From contig CAXXLX010000001.1 of assembly GCA_963665235.2 (NCBI GenBank), positions 4,096,001 to 4,160,000 of the forward strand: DNA of 64,000 bases, given 5' to 3'. The notes beneath the pieces are model-generated. The model was given only the letters and a program-made list of their open reading frames with translations. It made no database searches and was not told where the DNA came from. Positions within the stretch are counted from its first letter, which is position 1. Each line of letters opens with the position of its first letter. A program made the position numbers and the translations under genes. This document shows, in pieces, positions 5,927-61,700 of this stretch. Origin of the DNA: Candidatus Poribacteria bacterium (GTDB taxonomy: Bacteria > Poribacteria > WGA-4E > WGA-3G).

Positions 5927-6004
5927 GAAAATCAACTCCTTTGAGATAGACATCCTCTATAAACATATCGTCCATATTGGACTAAGAGGATTTTAAGGAT
6001 GCGT

Positions 6005-7888: not shown

Positions 7889-8085
7889 GAAAGAAACCTC
7901 AATTTTAGGGTGAAGTTTGCCGTCTAGACGCGGTGCGAAACTAAGAGCATCAATTTCGCCAGAGAAGAAAGTATACCATATTTTGTGAAAAAACAGAAGG
8001 ATTTTTTCAAAAAAGGAGCCCCCCTGCAAGGATGTGTAAAGTTTTGGTACACCATTCTATAAACATACCGCCCCGCTGGGGCTAT

Positions 8086-10041: not shown

Positions 10042-10061
10042 GCTAATTGAGCTCCTTAATA

Positions 10062-10566: not shown

Positions 10567-10581
10567 TGGGAAACGCAACCC

Positions 10582-26709: not shown

Positions 26710-26711
26710 GT

Positions 26712-27623: not shown

Positions 27624-27661
27624 ATCTTATCTCCTTTCTTAGAACTACGGTTTCTAGGTTT

Positions 27662-28156
27662 CTATAAACTACGGACGACGACACGACTTCCCTCAACATG
27701 AATGACTTCAATCTCTGTCTCTGGTTCAACAAACTCCCCCTGCGTAACGATATCGACACGTTGGCCGTTTATAAGTGCGACCCCTGCTGGTCGTAAGGGG
27801 CTTAATGTTTTTCCCGATTTTCCGACGAGGGCGGTTAACTCTTGAGGTGCTGCATGAAAACCTTCTTCACTTTTCTCAGAAGCAGTTAGGATAAAGTTTT
27901 TGCCGAAAGGTGTGTCCCGAAGAATGGACAAACCGACAATGGCAATCGGTATTACGAAAATCAACGCGACACTGGCATAGATGAGTGCCGTTGTAGCCCC
28001 TGCTCTTACCCAAATCATGCCGATTCCGACAAAGAGCAGGATTAGTCCAGGAATGCCTGCTGCACCGAACCCTGGAAGAATCAAAATCTCAATAAATATC
28101 AAGAGTATACCGAGTGCTATAAGAACCGTTGGTACCCACATGGTTTTTTCCTCCAA
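27662..28156 (-). CDS. Short NfeD family protein (TM helices plus OB fold)
   Basis: EILILPGFG; LVGKSGKTLSPLRPAG...VDIVTQGEFV. Confidence 0.9.
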   Translation of the reverse strand: MEEKTMWVPTVLIALGILLIFIEILILPGFGAAGIPGLILLFVGIGMIWVRAGATTALIYASVALIFVIPIAIVGLSILRDTPFGKNFILTASEKSEEGFHAAPQELTALVGKSGKTLSPLRPAGVALINGQRVDIVTQGEFVEPETEIEVIHVEGSRVVVRSL

Positions 28157-28176
28157 ACATTTTGTGTAAAAACGCC

Positions 28177-36742: not shown

Positions 36743-37669
36743 CTATTTTCCGTTTTCAGTCAATTTTTGCCTGAATGCCTCGAGGGTGTCTACCTGTGCG
36801 GCTGTTCGGACGAGTGCTTTGAGGCGTTGTATGTCTTCTATCTGCTCGAGTGCTATCTGCAAGGTTTCATCTGTGCCGATGCCGAATCGAGCGTCAAGGA
36901 AACTCAAGATGTTTTCAACAGCAATTTCTTGTTGTCCTTGTTCGAAGATATATCGATAAGTTGATGATTCAAACATGGGAACCTCCATAAGATGTTTGAT
37001 TTCTTCGGGGTCAACGATTAACCCGCTCAGGATCCATTGCCAAAGTAGTAGGTTATTTTGAACATCAGGGTCAAGGTCCAGCGTGCGTACCTGTTCGTGG
37101 CACCGTTCGACCCATTCCACTGCGGATACATCGTCCGGTCGCTTCATTAGGGGCGTGAATGCTATGAGGCTGGGTTCACGCGTTTCCAAAACGGCTTGTC
37201 CATCAAATTTGCTGAGATGGATAACCTGATATTCGATGTCTATATTGTAGCCATTAAACTCTTGCGTATACTTTCCGGGGTCGTTATCGCCGGCCCCTTC
37301 AATCATGTAAACGGTGTGGGATAAAATGGGCAGTCCGTATTTTTCGTAACATCGCCCGATGTATCCAACTTTTCGTTTGACTATTTCTGTTTCGGGTTGG
37401 CTGCTGACTTGGAACTCTATATGCACTAAGACCTCTTTACCATTAATTCGGACCTTCGCCAAAATATCCATGCGTCGGATTTCGACGGTTGGTAGTTCTG
37501 TATCGAGGTGTTCAATGAACTCGAGGTTTCGGATGTTTGTAAAATGTCTCAACAATGCTTCGGCGAACACTGCGAATATGCCTTTGCTGACAATATCGTA
37601 TCGTTGATACGGTAAGGCTTCAAGTAGCTGTTTAAAAAATTCTTCTATCCTATCTGTCCTATCTTTCAT
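36743..37669 (-). CDS. Rpn family recombination-promoting nuclease / PD-(D/E)XK putative transposase
   Basis: DTELP..RRMDIL...VHIEFQ core; C-terminal ESSTY..IFEQG...L.ARFG...LEQIED..RL. Confidence 0.8.
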   Translation of the reverse strand: MKDRTDRIEEFFKQLLEALPYQRYDIVSKGIFAVFAEALLRHFTNIRNLEFIEHLDTELPTVEIRRMDILAKVRINGKEVLVHIEFQVSSQPETEIVKRKVGYIGRCYEKYGLPILSHTVYMIEGAGDNDPGKYTQEFNGYNIDIEYQVIHLSKFDGQAVLETREPSLIAFTPLMKRPDDVSAVEWVERCHEQVRTLDLDPDVQNNLLLWQWILSGLIVDPEEIKHLMEVPMFESSTYRYIFEQGQQEIAVENILSFLDARFGIGTDETLQIALEQIEDIQRLKALVRTAAQVDTLEAFRQKLTENGK

Positions 37670-39804: not shown

Positions 39805-41091
39805 TTATGCGGAGACAGGTTCGTCGTTTTCGTTAACTCTAATAATATCTGCGCCGAGGTTGTTCAGTTTTTTCTCCAGTGATTCGTAGCCTCGGTCAAT
39901 ATGATAGACCCGTGAGACGACGGTTTCGCCTGCGGCTGCCATGCCCGCTGCGACGAGTACGGCACCGGCGCGTAAATCGGAAGCCATGACAGGGGCCCCG
40001 CTTAATCCTGAAACGCCATTAATAATAGCCCGTCGACCGTCCAGTCTGATATCCGCGCCCATTCGGTTGAGTTCCGCGGCGTGAATAAACCGGTCGGTGT
40101 GGACATTTTCGGTGATAATGCTTGTTCCGGTGGCAAAGCAGAGCAATCCCATCATTTGTGCCTGCATATCTGTCGGGAACCCTGGAAACGGCACAGTTGT
40201 GACATCGACCGGTTTAAGTTCGTCCGGCACTGTGACGTGGACCCCTTTGTCATCCCAATCCAATTCCACGCCAGCCTCCAGGAGCTTCTCAGAAACGGCG
40301 GGGAGTTGCTGCGGCGTGATACCCTCAACGTAAACATCACCTTTCGTGATAGCACCCGCTACCATGAAGGTGCCCGCCTCAATATCATCGGAAATGACGA
40401 CGTGTTCGGTTCCACGTAATTGTTTGACCCCGTGAATCGTCAAAATAGATGTGCCGATTCCCTCTATATCCGCGCCCATGGCGTTGAGAAAGCGCGCGAG
40501 GTCAATGATATGCGGTTCACGGGCAGCACCACGGATAACGGTTGTGCCTTCCGCCAAAGTCGCCGCCATCATGACGTTCGCTGTTGCACCAACGCTCGGA
40601 CCGTGGTTCCCTATTAAATCCATTTCCGCACCAATCAAACGTTCTGCTTGCGCGAAGATATAACCCTTTTGAACCTTTACCTGCGCCCCTAAACGTTCTA
40701 ACCCTCGGATGTGCAAGTCAACAGGACGCGGGCCGATAGCACACCCGCCCGGGAAGGAGACCTTCGCTCGTCCTAACTTTGCAACAAGCGGGCCCAAAAC
40801 ATAAATAGATGCTCGCATCTTTCGTACTAATTCATAAGGGGCTTCATACTCCATGTGGTTTATTGGTTCAATATAAAGCGTGGAATTTTTTATTTTTGTC
40901 GACGCACCAAGTCCCTCTAATACGGCGCGTAATGTCGTGACATCTGTTAAGTTCGGAACGTTGTGGAGTGCACTTGCACTATCACTAAGGATTGCTGCAG
41001 CAACTGCAATAGGAAGTACCGCATTTTTTGACCCACTTACCGGCACCGTGCCTTCAAGTCTCGTCCCCCCGTTAACAATTAATTTCTCCAT
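39805..41091 (-). CDS. murA: UDP-N-acetylglucosamine 1-carboxyvinyltransferase
   Basis: GSKNAVLP, MRAS, PGGCAIGPRPVDLH, SVGAT, FPTDMQAQ, SDLRAG, HIDRGYE. Confidence 0.97.
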   Translation of the reverse strand: MEKLIVNGGTRLEGTVPVSGSKNAVLPIAVAAAILSDSASALHNVPNLTDVTTLRAVLEGLGASTKIKNSTLYIEPINHMEYEAPYELVRKMRASIYVLGPLVAKLGRAKVSFPGGCAIGPRPVDLHIRGLERLGAQVKVQKGYIFAQAERLIGAEMDLIGNHGPSVGATANVMMAATLAEGTTVIRGAAREPHIIDLARFLNAMGADIEGIGTSILTIHGVKQLRGTEHVVISDDIEAGTFMVAGAITKGDVYVEGITPQQLPAVSEKLLEAGVELDWDDKGVHVTVPDELKPVDVTTVPFPGFPTDMQAQMMGLLCFATGTSIITENVHTDRFIHAAELNRMGADIRLDGRRAIINGVSGLSGAPVMASDLRAGAVLVAAGMAAAGETVVSRVYHIDRGYESLEKKLNNLGADIIRVNENDEPVSA

Positions 41092-41135
41092 TTCTATGCT
41101 CCTTTATTAAGAAATTTAAGGTTTTACGTCTCTCT

Positions 41136-41151
41136 TGCATAAACGATGCCA
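41136..41151 (-). promoter_or_regulatory. Putative sigma54 (-24/-12) promoter upstream of murA
   Basis: TGGCATCGTTTATGCA: GG-N10-GC spacing, about 45 bp before the start codon. Confidence 0.5.
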
Positions 41152-41367
41152 ACAGGTTACGTGTTACAAAAATAGTTGTACAGCGGATGTCTGCCTCAGG
41201 TCAATTGTGTAAAAAAAGACACATGTAGGTTGTAAAGTTCTTTTAGGTTGTAAAGTTCTTTTGTAGGTAACAAGCTCCCTCTTATGTAGGAGCGAGCTGT
41301 GCTCGCGACTATATTCCGAATTTGCGTCCGTCCTATGTACGATATTCCTATTTTGTGAAATTGTTTC

Positions 41368-41465
41368 TTGCATTCCTAACGAAAATGTGGTATAATTTAA
41401 AAATGCAAATGCCCCTTTGCGAAACCCACAATTTTTCTTGCACGCTCAACAGATTGTGCTACAAT
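41368..41465 (+). promoter_or_regulatory. Tandem sigma70-type promoters for the MNT-HEPN cluster
   Basis: TTGCAT-N17-TATAAT (41368-41396) and TTGCAC-N16-TACAAT (41438-41465), both with TG extension. Confidence 0.55.
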
Positions 41466-41512
41466 TAACACCACGTAAGAACAGTGAGCGACTGGACAAA
41501 AGGAGAGACAGC

Positions 41513-42262
41513 ATGGTTAGCCGTCAAGACATTCAAGCAACATGTGATGACATCGTGCGCGAATTCGCACCGTTGCAGGTTATCCTATTCGGCTCCTATG
41601 CCTATGGCACCCCTACCGAACACTCCGATGTCGACCTGTTAGTTGTCATGCAGGTGCCGAAGGCGGAAACAAGAAACCAAGCCTCGGAAATAGAACAACG
41701 GATACCGCACCGGTTCAAAATTGACCTGCTCGTCCGTTCACCGGAAGAACTCGCCTATCGTATCTCATACAACGATTGGTTTCTACGAGAAATTACGGAG
41801 AGAGGTGAAGTCCTTTATGAAGCGGATGGATTTTATCCGAAACCCTATAAGAAAGAGAATACGCACATGAACCCACTAACACTGGAATGGATACAAAAAG
41901 CTGAGGCTGATTATGCTACAGCCCGATTAATTCAACGAGAAGGAGAACCCTCAATGCATGATGCTATATGCTTTCATGCACAGCAGTGTGTTGAAAAATA
42001 CCTAAAGGCGTGGCTTCAAGAGGAAAACACTTCTTTTTCCAGAACGCACAACTTGGCGGAACTCCTGAAGCTTATATTGCCATCAATACCTTTATGGGCA
42101 TCGTGGACAGCTGACCTCTCAACATTATCAAAACATGCAGTCGATACCCGGTATCCAGGCACTTCAGCAACTGATAGCGATGTAGAAGACGCAATGAAAA
42201 CCTGCGAAAAGGTCCGACAAGCTGTCCGAAAACAACTAAAACTTGCAGATAACAAACCCTGA
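41513..42262 (+). CDS. Minimal nucleotidyltransferase (MNT)-HEPN fusion protein
   Basis: ATG 41513 after AGGAG; LFGSYAYG...SDVDLLV; HEPN FHAQQCVEKYLKA, RTHNL, TRYP. Confidence 0.9.
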   Translation: MVSRQDIQATCDDIVREFAPLQVILFGSYAYGTPTEHSDVDLLVVMQVPKAETRNQASEIEQRIPHRFKIDLLVRSPEELAYRISYNDWFLREITERGEVLYEADGFYPKPYKKENTHMNPLTLEWIQKAEADYATARLIQREGEPSMHDAICFHAQQCVEKYLKAWLQEENTSFSRTHNLAELLKLILPSIPLWASWTADLSTLSKHAVDTRYPGTSATDSDVEDAMKTCEKVRQAVRKQLKLADNKP

Positions 42263-42283
42263 CGCTGCTGAAGGAGAGACAGC

Positions 42284-42640
42284 ATGGTTAGCCGTCAAGA
42301 CATTCAAGCCACATGTGATGATATTGTGCGCGAGTTCGCACCGCTACAGGTTATCCTATTCGGCTCCTACGCCTATGGCACCCCTACGGAACATTCCGAT
42401 GTCGACCTGTTAGTTGTCATGCAGGTGCCGAAAGCGGAAACAAGAAATCAAGCCTCGGAAATACAAGAACGGATACCGCACCGGTTCAAAATTGACCTGC
42501 TCGTCCGTTCACCAGAAGAACTCGCCTATCGTATCTCATACAACGATTGGTTTCTACGAGAAATTACGGAGAGAGGTGAAGTCCTTTACGAAGCGGATGG
42601 ATTTTATCCGAAACCCATAAAAAAGAGAATACGCACATGA
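42284..42640 (+). CDS. Minimal nucleotidyltransferase (MNT, antitoxin-type)
   Basis: Near-identical to 41513-41866; GS...DVD motif; stop overlaps the next ATG (ATGA). Confidence 0.92.
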   Translation: MVSRQDIQATCDDIVREFAPLQVILFGSYAYGTPTEHSDVDLLVVMQVPKAETRNQASEIQERIPHRFKIDLLVRSPEELAYRISYNDWFLREITERGEVLYEADGFYPKPIKKRIRT

Positions 42641-43023
42641 ACCCACTAACACTGGAATGGATACAAAAAGCTGAAGGCGATTACGATTCAGCACAGCAAC
42701 TGCTACACGGGCAAAATCCGGTGCCTCATGTTATCTGCTTCCTTGCACAGCAGTGTGTTGAAAAATATCTAAAGGCGTGGCTTCAAGAGGCAAAAATCCT
42801 CTTTTTGAGAACGCACAACCTACAGCAACTCCTAAGTCTGATACTGCCATCAATACCTTCATGGGCATCGTGGACAGCTGACCTCTCAACATTATCAAAA
42901 CATGCAGTCGATACCCGGTATCCAGGAGCTGCGGCAACTGTCAGCGATATGGAACATGCAATGAAAACCTGTGAAAAGGTCCGACAAGCGGTTCGAAAAC
43001 AACTAAAACTCCCCGCTAAATAG
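42637..43023 (+). CDS. HEPN domain protein
   Basis: W..KAE.D, AQQCVEKYLKA, RTHNL, TRYP. Confidence 0.92.
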   Translation: MNPLTLEWIQKAEGDYDSAQQLLHGQNPVPHVICFLAQQCVEKYLKAWLQEAKILFLRTHNLQQLLSLILPSIPSWASWTADLSTLSKHAVDTRYPGAAATVSDMEHAMKTCEKVRQAVRKQLKLPAK

Positions 43024-43035
43024 GAGGAAACGATT

Positions 43036-44919
43036 ATGAAATCTCAAGACATCGTCGAAAAACAGTACTATGAAGCTGTCGATGCACTTGTTGAAAAGGT
43101 AAAGAAAGACCCGTATATCCTCGCTGCTATCGTTGCGGGGAGCTTTTCTTATGCACAAGTGTGGGAACGCTCGGATTTGGACGTTGAACTTATCGGTAGA
43201 GATGACATTCGCCCGACAAAATCGTTTTTCTCACTTGTGGAAAATGGCGTGAATATACATGCCTGTTTGTCCCCACGTAATTCCTTTAAGAAGGAAATAG
43301 AGAGCGCGCAACAGGGCTCCTTCATGCATTCATATTTCTCTCATAGCACGCTTCTATTTTCACGCGACGCATCTATCGAAGAGTGGTACGATAAAAACGC
43401 AAGTCGCGACAGCATCGGCGAACGAGATAAGCAGCTGCAACTGCTGAATGTCATTGCCGAGACCTTGCCCAACCTTATCTACGCAGAAAAGCAGTTCTAC
43501 GTTAACGGCGATGTGATAACCTGTTTCTTGTCACTCCTGAATGTTGTGCAAGGATTAGCACAGATAGAGCTGCTGCTGAACAATCAAATTCCAGCACGCG
43601 AAGTTATCCAACCGGCACTTAAGTTCAACCCCGAATTCTTTGAGCATGTCTATACCGACCTGATTAATTGTGAGAAAAACGAGTCGGTCATCCAAGACAC
43701 GCTTGATGCTGTTAATTCATACATCGACGAGCGTCAATTTATCTTCCAACCGATTATAGATTATCTCGCTGAGCAAAAAGGGGCACGGACAAACTCTGAG
43801 CTGAACATTCATTTTCGGACAAAATTTCGCGATGCCTCCGTAGATGTGATATGTCAATGGTTAACTTGGAAAGGGATTATCGAGCAGGTATCCACGCCAA
43901 TGAAAATCAGTGTCAAAAGTCAAATTGCGGTAGAAGAACCGGCGTACTATTACGATGATAGTACAGAACAAAAAGTGCTAACACCGCGTCTGAAAGCGGA
44001 CATCTCACCACAGATTCACGACGCGCTGGACAGCTTTATCGGGACAATTGAACAGGACCGCTACATCCTCGCCGCAGTTCTCACTAGCAACCTCGCGGAA
44101 GACAACGTGTGGGAGAAAACAATCGTTCAGATTACGCTTATTATGAGAGATGGCACAAAGTTGTCACAAAAAGCGTGTCAATTAATCGAAGCGGGGGTAC
44201 CGATTCGAGTGAGACTCTACACCCGTGGCGAGTATAGAAAGATGATAGAAAAGGCACTACAGGGGAGCCGCATCCATAGCATCCTTGCCGACAGTGAAAT
44301 CCTCTATTCCAAAGACCCAACGCTTGCCGAGCTACATAAAGACCTCAATGCCATCGGAGAACGCGATAAACAATCGCAACTCTTTAGTGCTGCAGGCGGT
44401 TTAACAGCAATACTCGACAAAACAGAAAAGTGGTTTCACGTCAAACAGGATTATGACTATACGTTTTACTATTTAATGTTTGCGGTCCGAGAATTAGCAC
44501 GGATTGAAACCCTCATGCAGGGGGAAGTCCCGAAACGGAAGGTCATCTATCAAGGTATTAAGCATAATCCGAAGCTGTTTAATGCCCTTTTCACCGATAT
44601 TATTGATGTACCGAAAGATGAGATGCTCCTCCGAAACGTTTTAAAGCAGATTGACGTATACCTACTAGACAACGTCCAGACACTTTTCAAACCGTTACTC
44701 GATTTTTTAGAGCACACGGGGGGCGAATCCGCACTGTCCGATATATATGACCACTTCGGAAATCGAGACTTGTGGTCCGCAATCGTCATGGCGTGTGAGT
44801 GGCTTTCCCATAAGGGTATCCTTGAGCAGTTTTCTGCCCCACTCCGTTTAACCATGGACAGTAAGGTCTCGGTTGAAGAGCCTGCCTACTATTACGACGC
44901 TGACAATCCGTTTCTGTAG
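43036..44919 (+). CDS. Protein with two tandem nucleotidyltransferase-like modules (first with intact motif, second degenerate)
   Basis: AGSFSYAQVWERSDLD versus TSNLAEDNVWEKTIVQ; both halves have IGERDKQ, CxWL..KGI.EQ.S.P and VEEPAYYYD. Confidence 0.8.
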   Translation: MKSQDIVEKQYYEAVDALVEKVKKDPYILAAIVAGSFSYAQVWERSDLDVELIGRDDIRPTKSFFSLVENGVNIHACLSPRNSFKKEIESAQQGSFMHSYFSHSTLLFSRDASIEEWYDKNASRDSIGERDKQLQLLNVIAETLPNLIYAEKQFYVNGDVITCFLSLLNVVQGLAQIELLLNNQIPAREVIQPALKFNPEFFEHVYTDLINCEKNESVIQDTLDAVNSYIDERQFIFQPIIDYLAEQKGARTNSELNIHFRTKFRDASVDVICQWLTWKGIIEQVSTPMKISVKSQIAVEEPAYYYDDSTEQKVLTPRLKADISPQIHDALDSFIGTIEQDRYILAAVLTSNLAEDNVWEKTIVQITLIMRDGTKLSQKACQLIEAGVPIRVRLYTRGEYRKMIEKALQGSRIHSILADSEILYSKDPTLAELHKDLNAIGERDKQSQLFSAAGGLTAILDKTEKWFHVKQDYDYTFYYLMFAVRELARIETLMQGEVPKRKVIYQGIKHNPKLFNALFTDIIDVPKDEMLLRNVLKQIDVYLLDNVQTLFKPLLDFLEHTGGESALSDIYDHFGNRDLWSAIVMACEWLSHKGILEQFSAPLRLTMDSKVSVEEPAYYYDADNPFL

Positions 44920-44985
44920 TTTGGCAATTGCCATAAGCCATAAGCCAGCGAAGCCAATTAATCAATAGCTAGAAAGGAGAATTTT

Positions 44986-47856
44986 ATGAGACAATCTATC
45001 GCTGTCAAAGGGGCACGAGAAAATAATCTACAAAACATAGAACTTGAAATTCCACGCGACCAGCTCGTCGTCGTTACAGGCATCAGCGGGTCCGGCAAAT
45101 CTTCATTGGCATTTGACACCGTCTATGCTGAAGGACAACGCCGATTCCTTGAATCCATGTCCACGTATGCCAAACGGTTCATCACACAGTTGAAAAAACC
45201 GGATGTGGATTTTATTGATGGGTTATCGCCGGTGGTTTCCATTGAACAGAAAACGGTGACGATGAATCCACGTTCCACTGTCGGCACGATGACCGATTTG
45301 CAAGACTATCTACGCATGCTCTTTGCAACTATCGGCGTTTCGCACTGCCCTTACTGTGAAAAGGAAATCCCAATACGGTCTCACCATCAGATTTTGGAAC
45401 GGCTGCTCTCGTTTCCAGAGGATACCGAAGTAGAAATTCATGCACCTGTCTTCAAAATCTACGGCGAAGATTACGAATACCTCTTTGACGATGTCCGAAC
45501 CAAAGGATGCCGACACGTCCGAATTGATGGCGTTGAACACGACATAAGCGAAGAAATTGAATTGGATGAGGATAAGGTATACGACATTCAGGTCATCGTT
45601 GATAAATTCTTTGTCGCCAAGGATATTGACAAACAGGTTTTAGCCTCACTTGAACACGCAATGCTGGTCGGAGAAGGCTTCATGCGGTTTGACGCAGTTG
45701 TTCCTGACGATGAAGACACCGACCCGAACGAATTCCTCGCTGATTTCGGATGCCATGAACACGGGGTGTTGATGTGCGACTTAGGGCCACACCACTTTAC
45801 CTTTAATGAACCGACTGGGGCTTGTGTAACCTGCTCCGGGCTCGGCACCTATCTCCAGGTCCATCCAAATCTACTCGTCCCCGACAAAACACGGAGCATT
45901 GCAGAAGGAGCCTTCGTCCACCAAGCCTTTAACTACGACCCCGATAGATGGGATGGACGCATGATGTACAGCCTTGCCCAACATTATAAATTCGACCTGG
46001 ATATGCCTTTTTGTGACCTTTCTGACGAAGTTGTGGATATTGTGTTCTACGGCACACGCGGCGAGGAATTTCCGCTCTGCCAAGCGGAAGGCGCAAAACC
46101 GATGCAGGAACGACATATCGGCATGCCGGTCCGATTTGATGGTATCATCACACGCATTGATAGGCGGTACCGAAACTACCGAAAACAGGGGGAAGCACAC
46201 TCTGGGATGGAGGAATATCTCCGAAAAGTGATGGTAGAACATACATGTCCCGATTGCCACGGTGCCAAACTTAAAAGGCAACGCCTTCTCGTTACCGTTG
46301 ACGATAAGACTATCCACGAAGTAGGCGAATTGCACTTTGAGCAGTTACGGGATTTCTTATCCGCAATTCAGCACATTCCCGAAAAACAGCGCGAAGCCGG
46401 CGAACGGGTTATCAAAGAACTCGTCGGTCGAATTACCCTACTACTCGGCATCGGACTGGATTACCTGAACCTTAATCGACGCTCCGCAACGCTTTCCGGT
46501 GGGGAATCCCAGCGGATTCGGCTCTCCACCCAAATCGGCTCGGGGTTAATGGGAATGCTCTACGTCCTTGACGAACCAAGCATCGGTTTGCACCCGAAAG
46601 ACAACGTCAAGATGATTGAAACCCTACACAAACTGCGCGACATCGGGAACACTGTCATTGTTGTCGAACACGACGAAAGCACTATTCGCGCAGCAGACCA
46701 TATCATTGAGATGGGGCCAGGCCCAGGTGTCCACGGCGGGCATGTTGTCATCCAGGGGACGTTCGAAAAGATTATTAAAAGCGATGATTCCTTAACGGGG
46801 CTCTATATGAGCGGAAAACGGGAGATTCCCATGCCTGAAGCGCGGCGGACCTCCAACGGCAACCTCCTGAAAATTACAGGGGCAAGAGAGAACAATCTGA
46901 AGGATATCAATGTCGAACTTCCGTTAGGTATGTTTATCTGCATTACCGGCGCGTCCGGCTCCGGCAAAAGCACGCTTGTCAACGAGATTATCTACAAACG
47001 GCTCTATTCTCTCTATCATGACAGCCGTACGCTTTACGGGGACCACGATTCCCTTGAAGGACACGAAAATATCAGCGATGTGATTAACATAGACCAATCC
47101 CCGATTGGACGTTCCCCGCGTTCTAACCCCGCCACGTATATCGGTTTTTACGATAACATTCGTAAACTCTTTGCAAGCACTCGCCTAGCAGTCGCCCGAG
47201 AGTATACCGCCTCGCGATTCAGTTTTAACGTCAAAGGCGGACGCTGCGAAGAGTGTCACGGTGAAGGCACAATTACGACACAACTCCATTTCATGCCGGA
47301 CGTTGAGGTGGTCTGTCCAACCTGTAAAAGTGCACGTTACAATCAGGACACGCTGGATGTAACCTACAACGACAAGAATATCTCCGAAATTTTGGATATG
47401 TCTATTGAGGAAGGGGTTGAATTTTTTGCCGACCAGCGGTTAATTCATCACAAATTGAACGTTCTCAACCAGCTCGGTCTGGGATACCTCCAAATAGGGC
47501 ATCCCGCTCCTATTCTTTCGGGCGGCGAAGCGCAGCGGATTAAACTCGCAAGCGAACTCGGCAAAATTAAACGGGGCAAACACAACCTCTATATCCTTGA
47601 TGAACCGACGACCGGATTGCATCTTGCGGATATCCAGAAACTCTTAGATAGCCTCAGCCGCCTCGTAGATAGTGGACACACGGTTATCGTGATTGAACAC
47701 CATCTGGACGTAATTAAGACTGCCGATTATGTGATTGACCTCGGACCAGAGGGGGGGCATAAAGGCGGTGAGGTATTGGCACGAGGTGCCCCCGAGGAAA
47801 TAGCGAAGGTGCGGAAATCATTCACAGGACAATTTTTAAAGGAGCATCTTGTTTAG
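44986..47856 (+). CDS. uvrA: UvrA family excinuclease ABC subunit A, probably a divergent paralog
   Basis: GARENNL x2, two Walker A GSGKS motifs, LSGGESQR and [11 protein letters not shown] motifs, zinc fingers. Confidence 0.9.
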
Positions 47857-47917
47857 ACCAATACCTACAACGGGTGATAAATCACCGGACTACGAACGCC
47901 CAGTTTATGGCTCTTTG

Positions 47918-48472
47918 TCATTTTGAGAAGGGAAATTGCTCTGCAACCACAAACCGGTTATCTGTTTCAGGGGCTCTGTAGATGAGACTAAGTGCTGTGA
48001 TTTCACACTGTATCGGCTGCCATTCGGTTTGAAGACGTTGCTGCTCAGCACGGAGCGAACGATGCTGGAATTGCCCGACTGAAAGGTGCGGGTGGAATCC
48101 ACCAGCATATCGTCCAGTGTCGTCGTAGTCCGGCAGATGTTGGACGAGAACGGTGTGGAGCTGCACAATCTCGTTCATCGGTTCGGGAACAAGGAAAAGG
48201 GTCGCCGATTTTCGGTGTCGGAAAGCGTTAAAACGTGCTAGTTCAATAGAAAAGGCGGTCTTTTGTTGCGCCGTTTTCGCAAGTGCGGGAATTACGTCTG
48301 CGAAATGCTCTCGCGCGGCGAATGGATAGAGCAACGTTATGTGCGGCATCCAACGTTCAAAGTTCCGGTCGTGGATTCGGCGGACCGCTTGAATGGATGG
48401 TTGTACGGACATCGGCGGAATGAGCACAACAGCCGTAGTGTGCGTTTTGCTAAGCATATCATCAAGTGGCAC
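47918..48472 (-). CDS. 2H phosphoesterase (2'-5' RNA ligase family)
   Basis: PHITL and PHLSV motifs. Confidence 0.88.
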   Translation of the reverse strand: MPLDDMLSKTHTTAVVLIPPMSVQPSIQAVRRIHDRNFERWMPHITLLYPFAAREHFADVIPALAKTAQQKTAFSIELARFNAFRHRKSATLFLVPEPMNEIVQLHTVLVQHLPDYDDTGRYAGGFHPHLSVGQFQHRSLRAEQQRLQTEWQPIQCEITALSLIYRAPETDNRFVVAEQFPFSK

Positions 48473-48549
48473 AAACTAACAGTTTATGAGAATCGGATTT
48501 AGATGGGCTAACGGGCGAGGTGACCTCGCCCCTACGATGTTATCGTTAG

Positions 48550-49725
48550 TTAGGGTTTAAAAATTTTGTAGAGTTCTATCTGTCCATCCCGAATTATGTG
48601 GATTGCACTGCTTTTGAGAGGGTGGCGCTCAGCGTCATAACCCGCGATAGCAGAGGCACCTTGGTAGTCGGTGATATTTGCTAACGCGTCTCGGACCGCA
48701 GTGGGTTCTAACGTTCCAGCATTCTCCATAGCAGTCGCTAATAAAGACATGGCATCGTAGCCCCAGGCTGCGGTGCCATCTGGCGGTACCCCAAACATTG
48801 CAGTGTAGGCTTGGACAAAGGGTGCGGCGTTGGGAGCTTCCGCGCTGAAATCTCTGAAAAAGTAAGCACCCTCTAGAGGGGCATTGTCGGTTAGGGTGCC
48901 GAGAAGTCTTTCCGCTTCATCCCAACCGTTGCCTCCGATGAAGGTTGCTTCGATGTCCATGCTTCTCGCTTGCGCTATCAATAGGGGAACTTCTGGGTTA
49001 AAACTGGCTGCGAAGATGACTTCTGCGTCCGCCGCTTTAATTTTCATCAGCTGGGTGTCAAAGGTTTTATCACCGAGTTGATAGACTTCGGTAGCGACAA
49101 TTTTGCCGCCGAGTTTCTGAAAATTCTCCGCAAAAGCGGTAGCAACACTCTCGGAGTATGCGTCGTTGGTTTGACGAATAGTTGCTGCAGTTTTTGCCCC
49201 AACCTCAGTCTCATCGAATGCCAAACGTGCAAGCACCCGCCCTTGGACAGAAGAGGGTGTTGCGACAAGGAAAACAAACTCCCCCCCAACGCTAGTCACG
49301 GTGTGTCCGGATGAACAGGGAATCATCGGGCGTTGCAGCTGCGTGACGACGGGCCCAACCTTGAGAGAATTAGAGGAGAAAATAGGACCGAGCATTGCAA
49401 CAACCCCCTCCTGCTCAATGAGTTCCCTTGCAAGCCGGACACTCTCCGCCGCATCTGGACGCGGGAGGTCGCCTTGGTTATCCCGAACGAGAAATTCAAC
49501 TTTCATCCCAAGTATGCCGCTGCTCTCGTTGCGTTGCGCTTTCGCGAGTTGGGCACCCTTGCTAAAACTGATAGCGACTCCCGATGGCTGAATTACACCA
49601 ATTTTCACAGTAGATGGACCATCTGGTGGGGTTACGGTCTGCTTAACGCGTTCACACCCTGAAAAGGGGATAACTAATATTGAGATTAAGATGAGCAAAG
49701 TTAGTGGAAAAATTTTTGTGTTCAC
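48550..49725 (-). CDS. Branched-chain amino acid ABC transporter substrate-binding lipoprotein (LivJ-like)
   Basis: GTG 49725 after AAGGAG; lipobox FSGC; VKIGVI, LGPIFSS, GGNGWD, GYDA. Confidence 0.88.
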   Translation of the reverse strand: MNTKIFPLTLLILISILVIPFSGCERVKQTVTPPDGPSTVKIGVIQPSGVAISFSKGAQLAKAQRNESSGILGMKVEFLVRDNQGDLPRPDAAESVRLARELIEQEGVVAMLGPIFSSNSLKVGPVVTQLQRPMIPCSSGHTVTSVGGEFVFLVATPSSVQGRVLARLAFDETEVGAKTAATIRQTNDAYSESVATAFAENFQKLGGKIVATEVYQLGDKTFDTQLMKIKAADAEVIFAASFNPEVPLLIAQARSMDIEATFIGGNGWDEAERLLGTLTDNAPLEGAYFFRDFSAEAPNAAPFVQAYTAMFGVPPDGTAAWGYDAMSLLATAMENAGTLEPTAVRDALANITDYQGASAIAGYDAERHPLKSSAIHIIRDGQIELYKIFKP

Positions 49726-49774
49726 TATTGACTCCTTACTAAGATAAACGGTACACGGCGTGTACCTACTACCA

Positions 49775-50551
49775 TTAAGCCTTTGCGGCGGTCCCGCCAT
49801 CGACTATGAGGGCGGTACCGGTAATCCATTCGGCATCATCGGATGCAAAGAAGACGGCTGCGCGGCCGATGTCTCTTGGTAATCCTAAACGGGCAAGTGG
49901 GGTCTTTTCCAACGCTTGTTCAACCTGTTCCGGTGTGAGGTAGTCTTGAATAGCTGTCTCAATATAACCGGGGCAGATAGCGTTGACAGTTATGCCGAAT
50001 TGACCGACCTCTAATGCGGTGTCTCTGGTCATATTGACGACCGCGGCTTTTGCTGGCGCGTAAGCGGGCCCCGCACCGCCACCGTAGGCATGAACAGAGG
50101 CAATTTGAATAATCCGACCAAATTTTGAGTGTTTCAGGTACGGAATGGCGAGTTTCGTTGCGACAAAAACGCCACGCAGATTAACACTAACAACCTTGTC
50201 CCAATCAGCGATAGAGATGTCTTGTGAGCTGCCGGGAATATGGATGCCAGCGTTGTTGACTATAACATCCAGCCCGCCAAAATGTTCGACGGTTTGCAGA
50301 ATTAACCGTTGGATTTGCGCTTCGTCGGACACGTCGGTTTGGCAAAATATTCCGGTCGCTCCTAATTTCTCAATTTCTGCGACAGTTGAGATTGTGACAT
50401 TCCGCTGGTGATATTTGCCGCGAAGGGGTGTTTCCTGCTTATCTGCAATAACGATGTGTGCTCCCTCGCGCGCGAACTCAAGTGCGATGCCGCGGCCGAT
50501 GCCCGAGCTTCCGCCGGTTACGATGCAGATACGCCCTTTAAGTACCATCAA
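49775..50551 (-). CDS. SDR family oxidoreductase
   Basis: VTGGSSGIG, NNAG, YAPAK, NAICPG, VDGG. Confidence 0.93.
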   Translation of the reverse strand: MMVLKGRICIVTGGSSGIGRGIALEFAREGAHIVIADKQETPLRGKYHQRNVTISTVAEIEKLGATGIFCQTDVSDEAQIQRLILQTVEHFGGLDVIVNNAGIHIPGSSQDISIADWDKVVSVNLRGVFVATKLAIPYLKHSKFGRIIQIASVHAYGGGAGPAYAPAKAAVVNMTRDTALEVGQFGITVNAICPGYIETAIQDYLTPEQVEQALEKTPLARLGLPRDIGRAAVFFASDDAEWITGTALIVDGGTAAKA

Positions 50552-51048: not shown

Positions 51049-54000
51049 TTAGAAGAAAGAGCGTCCAAGTGAACTGCCTGCCCCGAATGCATTGTAAGGA
51101 ACACCGGCCGGTAAGGTTTGGAAACCCCATGTTTCGGTAGTTGCGTCATAACCGAGTCCCATAGAAACAGCTGACTCGTCGATGAGTGTGACTTGGAAGG
51201 TAAAATCTTGTCGGACGTTATCAAATGGCGGTTCGCGTTTAATGCCAACCCGTCTCCAGGAAAGGCGAAGATTCCAGTCGTGCAAATTCCTGTTGATACT
51301 GACGCTTTGCGAATAAAATTGTCCATCAATTGGATAGTAGATAAGACTGGCATCAAATTCGAGGTTTTTACTGTGGCGGTAGCGTCCATTTGCCGTGATA
51401 GAACGCGATGCCTGAATTGAGGTGTGCCTTTTACTGAAAGAGCTTCCGAGGCTCACGTTCCACCTTTCGCGGGTGTATCGGAGGTTCGAGCGGAGCCCGA
51501 CGACTTTGAATTGTTTGCCATCGACTGGGTGTGGGTTTGGGTCATGTGTGAAGCGCACGGTCATATTTAGGTTTCGGCTTGGGAACGGGATGAGTGTGAA
51601 ATCACTCTCAATCGGTTCGTATTTGCGTCTATATAACGGATCGAATTCGGTGAAATCGGCGGTAAGGCGGGTATCAAAATAGAAGATGCGATGTGCTTCT
51701 TGACTCCGCCGCGTCTTAATCTCAAAACTTGTGCTAAAATCGTAGCTCAACCTTTTCCGTTCATAGAAATATGTACTCGGTCCAAAGGGATAGAGCGTGT
51801 CCTCTGAGTCAACAGCGGGTTGATAATTAAAGGTAAGGGTAGATTGTATTTCGTGTCGGAGCTTTCGTGCCCCGGGGATATAACTAATATTGTAGATACG
51901 GAAAAGCGTATTGGTAGCAGAGGCTCTGATACCGTACGCCCCCCCTAAAATGTTTCTATTTTTTTCTTGGTCTTTACTGTGCCAGATAAGGTTTGTATTC
52001 AAATTCAGGTTAAGTTTCAGTTCCCGCAAAGAGGTGATAAGGAGCGTTGACTGTTTACGTAGGTCGAAACCGAGGTCAAGCGTTTGGAGGAGTACATCTC
52101 TTTCCTCACGATAAACCTGCCTAAAGAAATTTCCGAATTCAATATCCATGTCAAAGCTTGTGTCTTCAAGTGTAGGGACCCTGAGCAGTGAGAGAAAAGG
52201 TTTATCGGATTTGAGTTTTTCGGAGGCGGTTAACATTCCGGTATTAATAGTTTTAAAGAGGGGGAGTGCGCTAAAACGCATCCGTGAGAAGTTGACTGTC
52301 AATTGCGGGAGTTTTTGTAGCGAAGTCGTTCCTTCGCCGGTGAAATCGTAAACGTGTCGGATTTCCAATCTGCTGGTAATATCTCCGATAGTCTGTTGAG
52401 AATAGCGCAAGTTATCATTTTCATCAACATCTTCTATGTCAAGTGCGGAGAGTGCAGAGCCGTAGGTGAGGATACCAAAGGAGTTGAGGGTAGAGTCGCC
52501 TGGGATTTGAAGGTCTTCCTTGTAATTAAGAGCCCGCCATTCTACGCGTCCGAGAAAACTGAGCGGTTTTCTTCCCGCGCCGGGTTTACTACTGTCCCAA
52601 GGCGTATAGAAAGATTGTCCGTGTCCCCAGCGTGCATTCCACCGTCTACCGATACGGGTTGCATCTCGTCTGCTAAAGGAATATTCATCTTTAGCGTAAA
52701 AGTAGAAATCACCGGTATAGGTCCGCTTTCTATCGACTTTGATGAGGTGAAACGCCTCTTTTGTTGAAATGACTCTTCGACTCATTTCGCCGCCATATAA
52801 ACTTTGTGCTTCCGATGCAACTGGTCTCGGGTCTTCCCACTGTCCACGGAACCCGTGTTTTCGGTAGACTTCAAGCTCTTCTTCTGCTGCTTCCTCACCG
52901 TTATCTTCGCCCGGTTCAGCCGTCTCGGTGCCGTTTGTGGCAGCCGTTTCCCCTTTATCAGGTTCAGAAGGCATCGGCGTAGGCTTTGCCTCTTCAGTAG
53001 GCGGTATTACTGGCTCCGCTGGCGTTGTCGGCTTCGGCTTTTCTGGCGGCGTTGGTTTAGAGTCAGGTAGGGTGTCGGTTTCCGGCTTTTCTGTTTTTTC
53101 TTCATCAGATGCAGCCATAGCCTCTGTTGAAAAAGTTTCCCATTCCGCTTCAAATTCTTCAGCGATAGCCTCAAAAGTCGGCGTTTCCTCTTTCTTAATT
53201 AATTGAAAAATGTAAAGCCCTTCAGGGGCATAGACGGGTCGGCCTTGGGTTATGTCATTAGGTTTTTCTAGGCGTCGGACCGAATACTGCCATCCGCTCT
53301 CCATTTCATTTAGGGGTAAACCTTTGCCTTCATTGATTTCAGAGAGCGTAGCTTCAGGAAATTCAGCGGCAAGTTGTTCAAAGGTTTCCTCAGCGAGAGC
53401 GCGTTCGTGAATTTTTTCTGCTACCTCGCGTAGTGTCTCTTGTGTTTCAGTGCTTGGACTAATCGCTATATCGATGCGTCGCAGTTTAATTTCGCGTTCT
53501 CCGTAAACATCAAGGGTCCGTTCAACTTTGAGGATGTGAAAAGCGGATTCGGTTTTTAAGACGGTACTAATTTCGTCTTCTTGTAGTGCAAACGCTGTTT
53601 CTTCCAAAATGGTGTCAAGTTTCGGATTGCCCTGCTGGTCCTGTTCCCCGCGTACAAGGAATCCCATATCTCCGCCCTCGTATCGGGTGTCAGAGTGGTT
53701 AGATTCGCGCTGTGCAAGACTTGCGAAGTCAGCATTTTCTTCCGTGAGTTGTTTGAGGAGCTCATCTGCTTTCTCTTTTGCCCGGTTGACATCTTCATCA
53801 TTAATCTGATATTTTAGGAAGAGTTGCTTTAGCCAGTACCGGTCGTAATCTCCTTCAAGACGTGCTTGTAATTCTTTCGCCTTGTCCTCGAATTTTGTGC
53901 GCTGGGCGGGGGTCGCTCCTGTCGGGATGGGTATGTAGATTTCTTGAAATTGTGTATCCCTGAACCGATATTTTCCTTCAAATCCGAAGCCTTGTCCGCG

Positions 54001-54987
54001 CCGGGCACTTCTGTCGTAGAGCAGCGCGCCATCATATCTCATTTTGCGTGCTAACGGTTGGATGATGCTGAAATAGGGCCCCTGGTAGCTATCCGTTCCG
54101 ACTCTAACGATAATTTTAGCCACTTTATCTTTGCGAAGGTCCCGGCGGATAGCGGGAAAATAGAAGAGCGGAAACCCGCCAATCCGTAAGACGATGTTTT
54201 TTGCAATCATCTCCTCTTTGATTCGAACAATAACCTCGGAAACGCTAAAATGGTAATGCGGATATTTTAGCGAACAGGTAGTTAGGGAAGCCCCTCGGAC
54301 ATAAGATTTCTTATCCTCTATTTTGAAGAGTTCACTTCCCCCGAAATACCACGGGTCACTGTATGTGAATCCGTTGCGTGCGATTCCTTTTTTGGTTTCC
54401 AGGTTGAAGATAAGTTCATCAGAGTATGTCTCTTCGTCCCCGACTTTGAGGTGTACGTTGCCGGATGCGCGCATCAAATTATCGTCGAAGTCAGCCCAGA
54501 CGTGGTCGGCACGCAAAATGACATTCTCGTATTTGATAAGGGCATTTCCGTGAATTTGTACCAAATTATCCACCAAAATCACCTTGTCTCCATCCCCGAT
54601 GACCGTACCTTCGGCAGGTGTCATCTTTTCAGGGTCGAGCTGTTTTTTAGCAGGTTTCTCAGGTTTGGTATCGGGAGATTCTTCTGTCTCCTCCGAAGGT
54701 GTAGGTACCGTTTGCTCTTCAGCAGGTGCCTGCTCCTCTTGGGGCACCTGAGCACTGAGGGATACTAGTGGTAAAAACAGACAGACAATCGCTATAATTG
54801 CGAGGTGCCCAACACGATTCAACCCTATAGTATGGGATGAACACGTCACGGACGGTCCACTTGTGAACTCGCCCCGTTGCATAAACCTTATCGGGTGTGT
54901 CATTTTAGAACTAGAAAGGATATCTCCGTTTTTTTGCAAAGGTTTCTCTCTTTTGTAGACGTGCTCTCGCGAGCACAACTTGCACAA
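51049..54987 (-). CDS. lptD: LPS-assembly protein LptD-like with inserted parvulin PPIase domains
   Basis: OstA-like jellyroll (GNALIKY..LRAD..ASGNV), TTC...PHY, IGGFPLFYFP, beta-barrel strands ending in RNLHDWNL; internal FASLAQRES...GGDMG...FHILKV; true start probably later (~54902). Confidence 0.8.
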   Translation of the reverse strand: MCKLCSREHVYKREKPLQKNGDILSSSKMTHPIRFMQRGEFTSGPSVTCSSHTIGLNRVGHLAIIAIVCLFLPLVSLSAQVPQEEQAPAEEQTVPTPSEETEESPDTKPEKPAKKQLDPEKMTPAEGTVIGDGDKVILVDNLVQIHGNALIKYENVILRADHVWADFDDNLMRASGNVHLKVGDEETYSDELIFNLETKKGIARNGFTYSDPWYFGGSELFKIEDKKSYVRGASLTTCSLKYPHYHFSVSEVIVRIKEEMIAKNIVLRIGGFPLFYFPAIRRDLRKDKVAKIIVRVGTDSYQGPYFSIIQPLARKMRYDGALLYDRSARRGQGFGFEGKYRFRDTQFQEIYIPIPTGATPAQRTKFEDKAKELQARLEGDYDRYWLKQLFLKYQINDEDVNRAKEKADELLKQLTEENADFASLAQRESNHSDTRYEGGDMGFLVRGEQDQQGNPKLDTILEETAFALQEDEISTVLKTESAFHILKVERTLDVYGEREIKLRRIDIAISPSTETQETLREVAEKIHERALAEETFEQLAAEFPEATLSEINEGKGLPLNEMESGWQYSVRRLEKPNDITQGRPVYAPEGLYIFQLIKKEETPTFEAIAEEFEAEWETFSTEAMAASDEEKTEKPETDTLPDSKPTPPEKPKPTTPAEPVIPPTEEAKPTPMPSEPDKGETAATNGTETAEPGEDNGEEAAEEELEVYRKHGFRGQWEDPRPVASEAQSLYGGEMSRRVISTKEAFHLIKVDRKRTYTGDFYFYAKDEYSFSRRDATRIGRRWNARWGHGQSFYTPWDSSKPGAGRKPLSFLGRVEWRALNYKEDLQIPGDSTLNSFGILTYGSALSALDIEDVDENDNLRYSQQTIGDITSRLEIRHVYDFTGEGTTSLQKLPQLTVNFSRMRFSALPLFKTINTGMLTASEKLKSDKPFLSLLRVPTLEDTSFDMDIEFGNFFRQVYREERDVLLQTLDLGFDLRKQSTLLITSLRELKLNLNLNTNLIWHSKDQEKNRNILGGAYGIRASATNTLFRIYNISYIPGARKLRHEIQSTLTFNYQPAVDSEDTLYPFGPSTYFYERKRLSYDFSTSFEIKTRRSQEAHRIFYFDTRLTADFTEFDPLYRRKYEPIESDFTLIPFPSRNLNMTVRFTHDPNPHPVDGKQFKVVGLRSNLRYTRERWNVSLGSSFSKRHTSIQASRSITANGRYRHSKNLEFDASLIYYPIDGQFYSQSVSINRNLHDWNLRLSWRRVGIKREPPFDNVRQDFTFQVTLIDESAVSMGLGYDATTETWGFQTLPAGVPYNAFGAGSSLGRSFF

Positions 54988-58790: not shown

Positions 58791-61700
58791 TCAGTCAGTT
58801 GCAACAAAAGGGGTTAGAATCTGTTGCAGTGCAATTAACAGGTTTTTTCCATCCAAACCTTCTATATCAATCATAAGCTGTGCGGGTGGGCGTAACTGGA
58901 GTTTTGGATTGTTATGAACCGTTTCGATAAATTGTGTCACATCAATTTTCGGTTTGCGTTCGTCAAAGGTTGCTTTGAGCTGCTTGCTTCCAGCAACGAG
59001 ACTGGTGATACCGAGCTGCTGGCTGAGTTGCTTGATGCTTGAGATTTCGAGTAGCATTTCAACCGGCTCTGGCATATCACCGTATCGGTCTTTTAGTTCG
59101 TTCTCCAATTCGCGCCTATCTGTCTCTGTCTTTAGAGCGGAGATTTTCTTGTAGATAGAAATTTTTTGTCGGCTGTCAGGGATATATGTATCCGGCAGAT
59201 ACGCTTCAATTGGCAAATTAATTCGGGTCTCAATTGCCTCCTCAACCTTTTCCCCTTTCAAACCGCGTACCGTTTCTTCAAGCAGTCTACAGTAGAGTTC
59301 GTACCCGATGGTGGCGATATGCCCGTGCTGTTCAGCGCCGAGTATGTTGCCTGCTCCGCGAATTTCTAAGTCACGAAGTGCAATTTTAAACCCGGAACCG
59401 AGGTCGGTAAATTCCTCAATGACGCGAAGTCGTTTTTCTGCGCCCTCGGTTATCGGCATATTTTCCGGATAGAAAAGGTACCCATACGCCTGCTCGTCAG
59501 CGCGCCCCACGCGTCCCCGGAGCTGGTAAAGCTGCGCTAAACCGAACGCATCCGCGCGATTAATCATGATAGTATTGACGTTCGGAATGTCGAGTCCGGA
59601 TTCAATAATCATGGTACAAACGAGAATATCGTGTTTGTGTCGGACAAATTCTAGCATGACCTGTTCCAATTCTCGTTCCGGCATCTGGCCATGGGCGATA
59701 GCGATGCGTGCTTGTGGGACCAGGTTCCGAAGAATCTCGGCAATACTTGCGATGCTCTGCACACGATTATGAACAAAGAAAACTTGCCCATCTCGTGCCA
59801 ATTCGGTGATAATCGCATTTCGTATAACCTCCGGATTATACGGCATGACATAGGTCTGAATAGGCAGCCGATTCGCTGGCGGCGTGTTGATAACGCTGAA
59901 ATCCCGAATGCCGACAAGCGACATGTGCAGGGTACGGGGAATCGGTGTTGCTGTCAACGTAAGCACGTCCACCGTCTCCTTGAACTGTTTAATCTTCTCC
60001 TTATGTTTAACACCGAATCGGTGTTCCTCGTCAACCACGAGGAGCCCGAGGTTGTCAAAGTTGACAGTGCTTGAGAGCAAACTATGCGTGCCGATGACGA
60101 TATCAACGGTCCCCTCAGCAAGCCCGCTCTTGACCGTTTGTATCTCCTTCCGGGTGCGAAACCGATTCAGCATTTCAACGTGTATCGGAAAAGGTTTGAA
60201 ACGTTTTTCAAAGGTGTCATAATGTTGGAGTGCCAGTATAGTTGTTGGTACAAGAACAGCTACCTGTCTTTCTGCCATAACGGCTTTAAAGGCAGCTCGC
60301 AAGGCGACCTCCGTTTTGCCATAACCGACATCACCGCAGATAAGCCTATCCATCGGCACCTCTGCCTCCATGTCCGCCTTAACGTCTTCGATTGCTTGAC
60401 GTTGGTCATCGGTTTCCTGATAAGGGAAAAGAGCTTCAAATTCAGTTTGCCATGGGATATCCACTGGAAAACTGTAACCTTTGCGTGCCTGCCGGGTTGC
60501 ATAGAGTTTTAGGAGGTCATCCGCCATTTCCTCTATTGCTGCCTTGGCACGTCCTTTTTTACGCTGCCAGGCTGTTCCGCCGAGCTGGTCAAGCCGTGGC
60601 GCGTAAGCCTCATCTTTGTTTCCTAAATACTTTTGCACTAACTCAACCTGATAGGTTGGCACATAGAGCCGGTCATCGTCTCTATATTTGAGGACAAGAA
60701 AGTCCTGCGCCTGTCCATCAATATCCATTCGACGGATGCCTTCATATAGTGCTATACCGTTGGAAACGTGCACAACATAGTCCCCAACCTTCAGGTCTAT
60801 CAGGCTGAGAATCGGTGCCCCGTTGTTATAACGTCTTTTCGGTCTTCCCCTGCGTTGCTGGCTTCCGAAGAGCTCGTTTTCTGAAATAACAGCAAATCGT
60901 AGTGATTCATTGAGAAATCCTTCAGAGATAAGCCCGACGCTAACTGAAACACTTTCCGGGGAAAGGTCCCGCTCCATTAACATCTCCAACACGCGCTTTG
61001 CCTGTTGTGGGGTTTCACAGTAAACTTTGATGAGATACGCCTCGGTTGTCCACGTTTTAATATGGTCAATCACCATTTGGTAATTGCCACGACCGAGCCC
61101 GAGCGGTTTCATGCCAAAGTAGAGTTCTGAAACAGATGGCGGCTGCTGGTTATCAGGTACCGGCTCATTATTTACATCGGAAACCAAGGAGATGCGGACA
61201 TTCGGATACCTCCCTAATTCGGTCTGCAGTGTGTTTGCGGGGACTAATAATGTTTCAGGTGCGGGCATCAATTTACCTTCGGTCAGTCTCCGTGAGTATA
61301 TTGTCTGCAGCTGTTCGTGCATCTGTTCAGCCTCCCTTGCCTGCCATCGGGGTTCTACGAGAACCAGAATTGTGTCATCAGGGAGATAATCCATGAGCGT
61401 CTCTGTCTCTGGGAACAGGAGCGGTAGGAAGGCTTCAATGCCATCAATTTCCGTGGGATGTTCCTCAGCTTCGGCCGTTGCCTTCACTAACCAATTTTCC
61501 AAGGATTGTGTCATATCGCGGACAGCATTTATGAGTTCAGGCGTGTTTTCGGACCCATGCATCAATCGCTTAGTTTGTGATTGCCAATGCGTGAGCGAAG
61601 CTTCTGCAAGACACACCTCGGACATTGGCGTGAGCACGACCGATGTATCGTGTTCCACAGAACGTTGCGATGTCGGTTCGAAGAGTCGAATGTCGTCAAG

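Follow-up and report, generated by a model that had tools for sequence, protein, structure and literature searches.

A tandem nucleotidyltransferase linked to a divergent UvrA: a candidate accessory DNA-damage module in Poribacteria and other bacteria

Why should a nucleotidyltransferase gene stand directly in front of uvrA? The question is raised by a 64,000-nucleotide window of a Candidatus Poribacteria bacterium genome (assembly GCA_963665235.2, contig CAXXLX010000001.1, positions 4,096,001 to 4,160,000 of the forward strand), to which all coordinates below refer. Here a transferase open reading frame (ORF) of 627 amino acids (aa; 43036-44919, +), a tandem of two ~305-aa units, is followed by a full-length uvrA of 956 aa (44986..47856, +), recognised as UvrA by NCBIfam equivalogs and placed by trees and motif counts in a separate, transferase-linked clade. 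An earlier note, made from the sequence alone, had proposed a repair or defence module. We consider a joint DNA-damage role of the two genes likely, a conclusion much safer than any one substrate. The observed parts are a conserved operon, a separate UvrA clade, a rebuilt UvrB-binding domain and an intact transferase family. Our main reading, to which we give a probability of roughly one half, is that the pair forms an accessory DNA-damage module beside UvrABC, in which the rebuilt UvrA domain would recruit the transferase at distorted DNA. No published description of a uvrA-transferase pair was found in a literature search that covered few subscription journals. The module is real and conserved, and consists of known folds in an arrangement for which the literature searched held no description.

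Linkage of the transferase gene to uvrA

A genome scan recovered 343 relatives of the transferase, and the best 80 loci were fetched and examined. The scan used a narrower alignment (A3), the broad alignment (A1) having no usable conserved stretch. The A3 pattern demands D-x-D, so that these 80 loci are uninformative on catalytic conservation, for which we turned to protein searches unselected for the motif. The earlier note had made its proposal depend on conserved linkage among transferase homologs, and this linkage is present: in 71 of the 80 loci the transferase gene has uvrA downstream of it on the same strand (68 complete, three cut by contig ends), under nine phylum labels as given by the submitters. 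Four further contigs end too soon, and without these the linkage stands at 71/76. The linked loci are labelled Latescibacterota (18), Bacillota (16), Armatimonadota (11), Gemmatimonadota (7), Acidobacteriota (7), Chloroflexota (5), Poribacteria (1), Abditibacteriota (1) and Planctomycetota (1), with four unlabelled. Many are near-copies; single-linkage clustering at 70% identity groups them into 27 clusters, all of which include a linked locus.

The gap between the two genes has a median of 28.5 nt and is within 200 nt in 63 of 68 loci, with many stop/start overlaps. Clustering of ORFs of at least 100 aa in the loci yielded no third gene common across phyla, and no uvrB was found in any of the 80. 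The gene trees of transferase and UvrA are congruent (r 0.92, 30 representatives).

A separate UvrA clade with a rebuilt UvrB-binding domain

The window UvrA scores above both equivalog cut-offs (NF001503, 1240.6 against 1147; TIGR00630, 1199.1 against 729.8) and contains the UvrA_inter and UvrA_DNA-bind domains. Because these cut-offs are passed, linked uvrAs are annotated as ordinary uvrA. The window protein is 47-49% identical to the best canonical records. We compared 69 linked UvrAs with 13 canonical ones taken from named records, the canonical set being drawn up without Poribacteria, Chloroflexota and Acidobacteriota. The divergence suspected for this one UvrA proved to be that of a separate clade, as FastTree (82 rows) and a quick IQ-TREE run (19 rows) each separate the linked from the canonical sequences by a branch with support of 100. 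A canonical Paenibacillus uvrA (P. cellulosilyticus, L081) adjoins uvrB and groups with Bacillus. A tree joining it with three linked Paenibacillus UvrAs was rejected by the approximately unbiased (AU) test (p-AU 2.3e-5), for a grouping chosen by taxonomy after the FastTree result had been seen. We infer two uvrA copies in one Paenibacillus genome, the copies compared being from different species. As a side observation, a divergent uvrB-uvrA pair also occurs on a conjugative plasmid of Bacillus mycoides, where the surrounding genes look biosynthetic (L086:1127-5829).

All 69 linked UvrAs retain R712, the two Walker A lysines and the cysteines of zinc fingers 2 and 3. The first zinc finger, read earlier as degenerate, is not: C121, C124, C256 and H259 are all present in the window UvrA, and across the clade C121 and H259 are found in 69/69 and C124 and C256 in 61/69. 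H259, invariant here, is variable in the 13 canonical sequences. At the position of the wedge tyrosine described in PMC12796330, linked UvrAs have Y (43), F (23) or W (3). The zinc-finger-3 hairpin and the insertion domain also carry changes specific to the clade.

The UvrB-binding domain, which together with zinc finger 1 spans residues 118-262 (45337..45771, +), has been rebuilt. Its clade-specific invariants are E161, R171, R176 and G229 (window numbering). Identity in the UvrB-binding region is 0.45 within the linked set and 0.41 within the canonical set, with 0.26 between them, and the mean net charge is -9.4 in linked vs about -2 in canonical sequences. Residue R216 of the E. coli protein, part of the UvrB interaction surface (PMC3025350), is kept in 13/13 canonical UvrAs and in 0/69 linked ones. 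Since K159, G160 and the acidic residue 219 are likewise absent in 69/69, the atypical character previously noted for this domain is borne out, with the equivalents of E. coli K159, G160, R216 and E219 all lost. The conserved new surface suggests a new partner, and residues 118-262 may, judging from sequence, be the docking site for the transferase.

These results bear on whether the linked UvrA might be a divergent but ordinary nucleotide excision repair UvrA that still loads UvrB, the transferase being merely a co-regulated damage gene. The passing of both cut-offs, the presence of all domains with the Walker A lysines and R712 retained, and the wide occurrence of this UvrA in Poribacteria-like sequences (at least 120 matches at 79% identity or higher) would all agree with such a protein. 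It is nonetheless very unlikely to be the answer, given a clade that spans nine phylum labels and excludes the canonical Paenibacillus uvrA beside uvrB, the loss of R216, K159, G160 and acidic 219 throughout, and a gene order that is kept while all other neighbours change.

UvrA classes are reportedly treated by Marszalkowska (2013). With class I UvrA, the protein of UvrABC, the linked UvrA has in common the domain order, two ATP-binding cassette (ABC) ATPase modules, three zinc modules, the insertion domain and R712, and it differs in forming a separate clade with a rebuilt UvrB-binding domain and a transferase neighbour instead of uvrB. Like class IIa (DrrC, Ecm16, UvrA2), it is a paralog likely to work outside UvrABC, but it has a dedicated partner gene. 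Class IIa UvrA is described in PMC9328131 as being without zinc finger 1 and the UvrB-binding domain; the linked UvrA keeps both and differs from class IIa in this. That paper also reports drug resistance from Ecm16 in the absence of UvrB, C and D, with ecm16 alone sufficing in E. coli. Published arrangements, as far as the sources available describe them, have UvrA with UvrB (and Mfd), or a class II protein such as Ecm16 without a Uvr partner. If the main reading is true, a third arrangement would show that the UvrA sensor can be re-plugged into other chemistry.

One composite active site in the tandem transferase

The internal duplication claimed for the 627-aa protein is real, its halves aligning over 303 residues with 108 identical (36%, E 5e-70). 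Unit 1 (43036..43962, +; Pfam Polbeta, E 2.7e-5) has the GS and DLD elements that had been reported, although they are spaced by x10, the earlier x9 being one short. It keeps G35, S36, S46, D47, D49 and H75, while K149 is replaced by Y. In unit 2 (43990..44919, +) residue comparison confirms the loss of the metal-binding motif (codons about 44086-44130), where SN and T-I-V-Q stand at the GS and DLD positions. This unit conserves W, D, G-x-x-D, K462 (equivalent to K149), K465 and R.

The AlphaFold2 model of unit 1 (predicted local distance difference test score, pLDDT, 96.3) comprises a nucleotidyltransferase (NTase) domain, a helical bundle and a C-terminal winged helix with a conserved basic wing. 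In the full-length model (predicted template-modelling score, pTM, 0.89) the tandem folds as a compact unit. The best fold match of unit 1 is the YgxA-like protein 3C18 (Z 20.1 over 278 residues), followed by ANT(4') (Z 14.9) and LinB (Z 13.9); HalB, a DNA-oligomer synthase, is also among the matches (E 2e-6). A single-sequence PDB search gave nothing below E 0.27, whereas the family profile reaches 3C18 at E 9.8e-14. PF22339 scores 22.4 bits, below its cut-off of 27, PF14540 and PF18576 are not listed, and no NCBIfam family matches the 627-aa protein at E 0.1, the ANT(4')/KNTase and LinB hidden Markov models included. Atlas homologue searches returned unnamed Pol-beta/YgxA clusters for the transferase and UvrA interaction domains for UvrA, and the closest named relatives of both genes among the matches listed are Candidatus Poribacteria.

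Unit 1 has the features of the Pol-beta superfamily, namely GS and D-x-D on an NTase fold, and its modelled architecture is YgxA-like, with an NTase-like domain, a substrate-binding bundle and a C-terminal winged helix. 3C18 (PF14540/PF22339/PF18576), for which no function is given, has the same three-domain fold at 17% identity, but in the profile alignment it is without two motifs that hardly vary in the transferase, W-x-x-S-D-x-D and K-x-x-K. ANT(4')-Ia/KNTase and LinB have the NTase domain and four-helix bundle in common with the transferase, to which the latter adds the winged helix and the linkage to uvrA. The pair gives a testable function for an orphan YgxA-like fold.

Relatives of the transferase number 585 representatives at E 0.001 or better, mostly single units of ~305 aa. 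Among 99 single-unit relatives, picked by length from the unselected protein searches, GS and D-x-D are intact in 95, and K/R149 is likewise retained in 95. As the family is normally one intact unit, the tandem would be a derived form of what is probably a homodimer. The best 120 of 551 longer relatives are all tandems of 572-664 aa, which crowd this list, with no transferase-UvrA fusion among them. In a few relatives the transferase is fused behind other domains: an extracytoplasmic function (ECF) sigma factor in P0051, P0106, P0110, L008 and L018, and an AraC domain in P0136. The fusions L008:7053-8894 and L018:7368-8894 still precede uvrA.

How the units of a tandem divide their work was examined by splitting all proteins of 570-700 aa among the collected sequences that contain two family domains (n=127). 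Exactly one intact motif is present in 127/127, in unit 1 of 124 and in unit 2 of three. The 127 are non-independent, most coming from one Poribacteria-type lineage; a tree of 16 tandems and 93 single units places their origins at about six, and at least five by starred branches. K/R149 shows the reciprocal pattern, being kept in the dead unit in 127/127 and lost from the live unit in 123/127. Three origins show this loss, namely the Poribacteria type, P0099/P0100 and P0168, the last with its units in reverse order; the other three (P0096, P0097 and P0101) do not. H75, E189 and the wing residue K294 go with the live unit; K294 is kept in 118/127 live units and is mostly D/E in dead ones. P0097, labelled Candidatus Hermodarchaeota archaeon (Asgard-labelled), is a tandem whose units are 72% identical.

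In KNTase and LinB the active site lies between an N-terminal domain from one subunit and its partner's C-terminal domain, and Lys149 of the KNTase site is supplied by the second subunit (PMC4631478). If the transferase K149 is equated with KNTase Lys149, the reciprocal loss of K149 and motif would mean that one KNTase-type composite site persists, while the other has lost what both of its sides contribute. The tandem units are better understood as two complementary parts of a single composite site than as an active and an inactive copy; the pseudo-heterodimer proposed earlier holds as to the tandem, and its active/inactive division is what we would revise. From the tandems it follows that a single site is enough; they do not show selection for losing the second. 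Their repeated fusion provides a natural map of cis- and trans-acting residues in a KNTase-type dimer.

Two other targets for this site have to be weighed. The transferase could act on the DNA itself at a site found by UvrA, either adding a nucleoside monophosphate (NMP) to an end or, in reverse, removing a nucleotidyl adduct or blocked 3' nucleotide. The conserved basic wing, with its K294 in nearly all live units, and the HalB match would suit such chemistry, and an asymmetric substrate would go well with a dimer that has a single active site. However, the best folds after 3C18 are small-molecule O-adenylyltransferases rather than polymerases, and the loci examined show no co-conserved nuclease, ligase or polymerase, which leaves action on DNA ends rather unlikely. 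The other possibility is that the transferase modifies or regulates proteins, either as a nucleotide sensor or by AMPylating a repair or transcription protein, be it the UvrA paralog or a different one. Pol-beta-family MNT and GlnE enzymes modify proteins, some relatives are fused behind ECF sigma factors or an AraC domain, and the stop/start overlaps suggest a stoichiometric pair. We nonetheless judge this role unlikely, since no conserved target or effector gene occurs beyond uvrA, and since the rebuilt UvrA surface and hairpin changes suggest a changed DNA job and not only added control.

Proposed mechanism, regulation and neighbouring genes

In the main reading, the operon would be induced by DNA damage, via LexA at least in Paenibacillus. 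The UvrA paralog, with its ATPases intact, would scan DNA and stall on a distortion as UvrA does, and its rebuilt, more acidic UvrB-binding domain would then recruit the transferase dimer in place of UvrB. A single composite site, formed by one NTase domain and the bundle lysine of the other unit, would transfer NMP at the lesion; in the window genome this dimer would be encoded as a single chain. The favoured target is a DNA-bound genotoxic small molecule, for which DrrC/Ecm16 would be the model of displacement and ANT(4')/LinB that of the inactivation that follows. We favour such a toxin over a DNA end as NMP acceptor, because the nearest characterised folds are drug adenylyltransferases, because UvrA paralogs protect from intercalators without UvrB (PMC9328131), and because detoxification genes occur here and there near the pair, an uncontrolled observation. 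More tentatively, the pair may amount to a UvrB-independent branch of the damage response, in which UvrA works with a half-of-sites nucleotidyltransferase in place of a helicase and deals with lesions or DNA-bound toxins through nucleotidylation instead of excision. Such a branch would extend over at least nine bacterial phyla. Many soil and sponge bacteria carry the pair, and as cultured soil Paenibacillus strains are among them, it is directly testable.

LexA boxes follow a purine/pyrimidine rule in their spacer. Using the B. subtilis-type consensus (PMC4551915), a box with at most one mismatch was found within 215 nt of the start in 7/15 Paenibacillaceae loci, against a mean of 0.17 and a maximum of 2 in 500 shuffles of the leaders. 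Six of the seven boxes sit between -35 and -10; the seven loci are related, three being close kin. The same scan found a LexA-type site upstream of uvrB in 3/5 canonical loci, and one Latescibacterota lineage has a two-mismatch box in the same register.

In the window, a probable original promoter of the transferase-uvrA operon lies at 41368..41396 (+; -35, 17 nt, -10). It matches the transferase promoter of another Poribacteria locus (L003) at 23/29 bases, the next best site in the window matching at 18, and is supported by alignment with L002, L003 and L004. A ~770-bp MNT-HEPN repeat thus seems to have entered between this promoter and the transferase gene. Promoter and terminator scans gave chance-level results, and an Rfam scan of 40000-50000 matched nothing.

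Several observations weigh against the main reading. Five of the 76 informative loci have no nearby uvrA (L002, L004, L035, L047 and L056); L047 has upstream genes in common with L043, where uvrA sits 1.6 kb downstream. The congruence of the gene trees shows co-inheritance, not binding. Some UvrB-contact positions are kept in linked UvrAs (E222 in 42/69, R176 in 40/69, R/K206 in 69/69), and the comparison covers the UvrB-binding domain, one of two UvrA-UvrB interfaces; going by these retained positions, the linked UvrA could still bind UvrB. Among the positions compared, R216 and E222 are published, and R176, R206 and D219 we take to be interface residues, having found no confirmation in print. 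In the transferase, the position that would be the third acidic one is His/Asn in 81/100 rows, and the acidic drug-binding residues of KNTase have no evident counterpart. Detoxification genes are scattered among 139 neighbours of 40 loci, and VOC/glyoxalase genes lie near the pair in 5/40, both counted without a background control. As to regulation, the LexA-type box is missing in 8/15 Paenibacillaceae leaders, none of four LexA patterns matched consistently in the remaining 65 loci, and the window promoter element, though it agrees in position and in half of the box, does not fit the LexA pattern.

The genes around the pair are arranged as had been described. The transferase starts 12 bp after a HEPN gene (ending at 43023) and ends 66 bp before uvrA, and a 2H phosphoesterase gene (47918..48472, -; Pfam 2_5_RNA_ligase2) converges on the pair. 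The HEPN gene belongs to a tandem direct repeat of ~770 bp (41500-43023) whose copies are 85-95% identical. Copy 1 is one fused MNT-HEPN frame of 249 aa from the ATG at 41513 (41513..42262, +; Pfam NTP_transf_2 and HEPN), and copy 2 consists of two genes (42284..43023, +), MNT at 42284-42640 and HEPN at 42637-43023. MNT, HEPN, 2H and murA were tried as module members by tblastn and matched in 0/80 loci. The HEPN and 2H genes, mentioned earlier as lying next to the pair, are absent from 80/80; the MNT-HEPN repeat and the 2H gene are passengers, not module.

It is this toxin-antitoxin-type pair in front of the module, together with the fold likeness to HalB, that could point to an anti-phage system, in which UvrA would sense foreign or modified DNA and the transferase would make a signal or a toxic modification. 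Yet the MNT-HEPN pair is confined to the window among the loci compared, no effector gene is found, the neighbours are mostly housekeeping or metabolic with no recurrent defence genes, and the transferase has no match in 72,556 plasmids and 50,697 phages. In PADLOC 2.0 the best transferase match has E 0.024, and UvrA matches MADS mad3 over the UvrA C-terminal part only. The defence role suggested earlier is thus not upheld, and we regard it as highly improbable.

The earlier statement that the window holds no uvrB or uvrC agrees with our searches: tblastn with canonical UvrB matches mfd only (58791-62405, -), and no uvrC family match occurs among the main window ORFs scanned, some small ORFs lying outside the scan. 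As a module partner mfd was rejected, as it sits 11 kb away from the pair and no UvrB-like match occurs in the 80 loci. It is followed by three genes with peptidyl-prolyl isomerase (PPIase) domains and by a gene (51049-54987) whose 1312-aa product has an internal PPIase domain. Elsewhere in the window, an ECF sigma factor gene lies among five genes for WD40-repeat proteins (1085-13278, -), and a pair of floA flotillin-like genes comes after two genes of nfeD type (25672-29763, -). A 308-aa ORF (36743-37669, -) has only a weak Pfam match; by eye it resembles what we take to be an Rpn-type PD-(D/E)XK protein. The murA-MNT intergenic region contains a perfect 18-nt tandem repeat (41226-41261).

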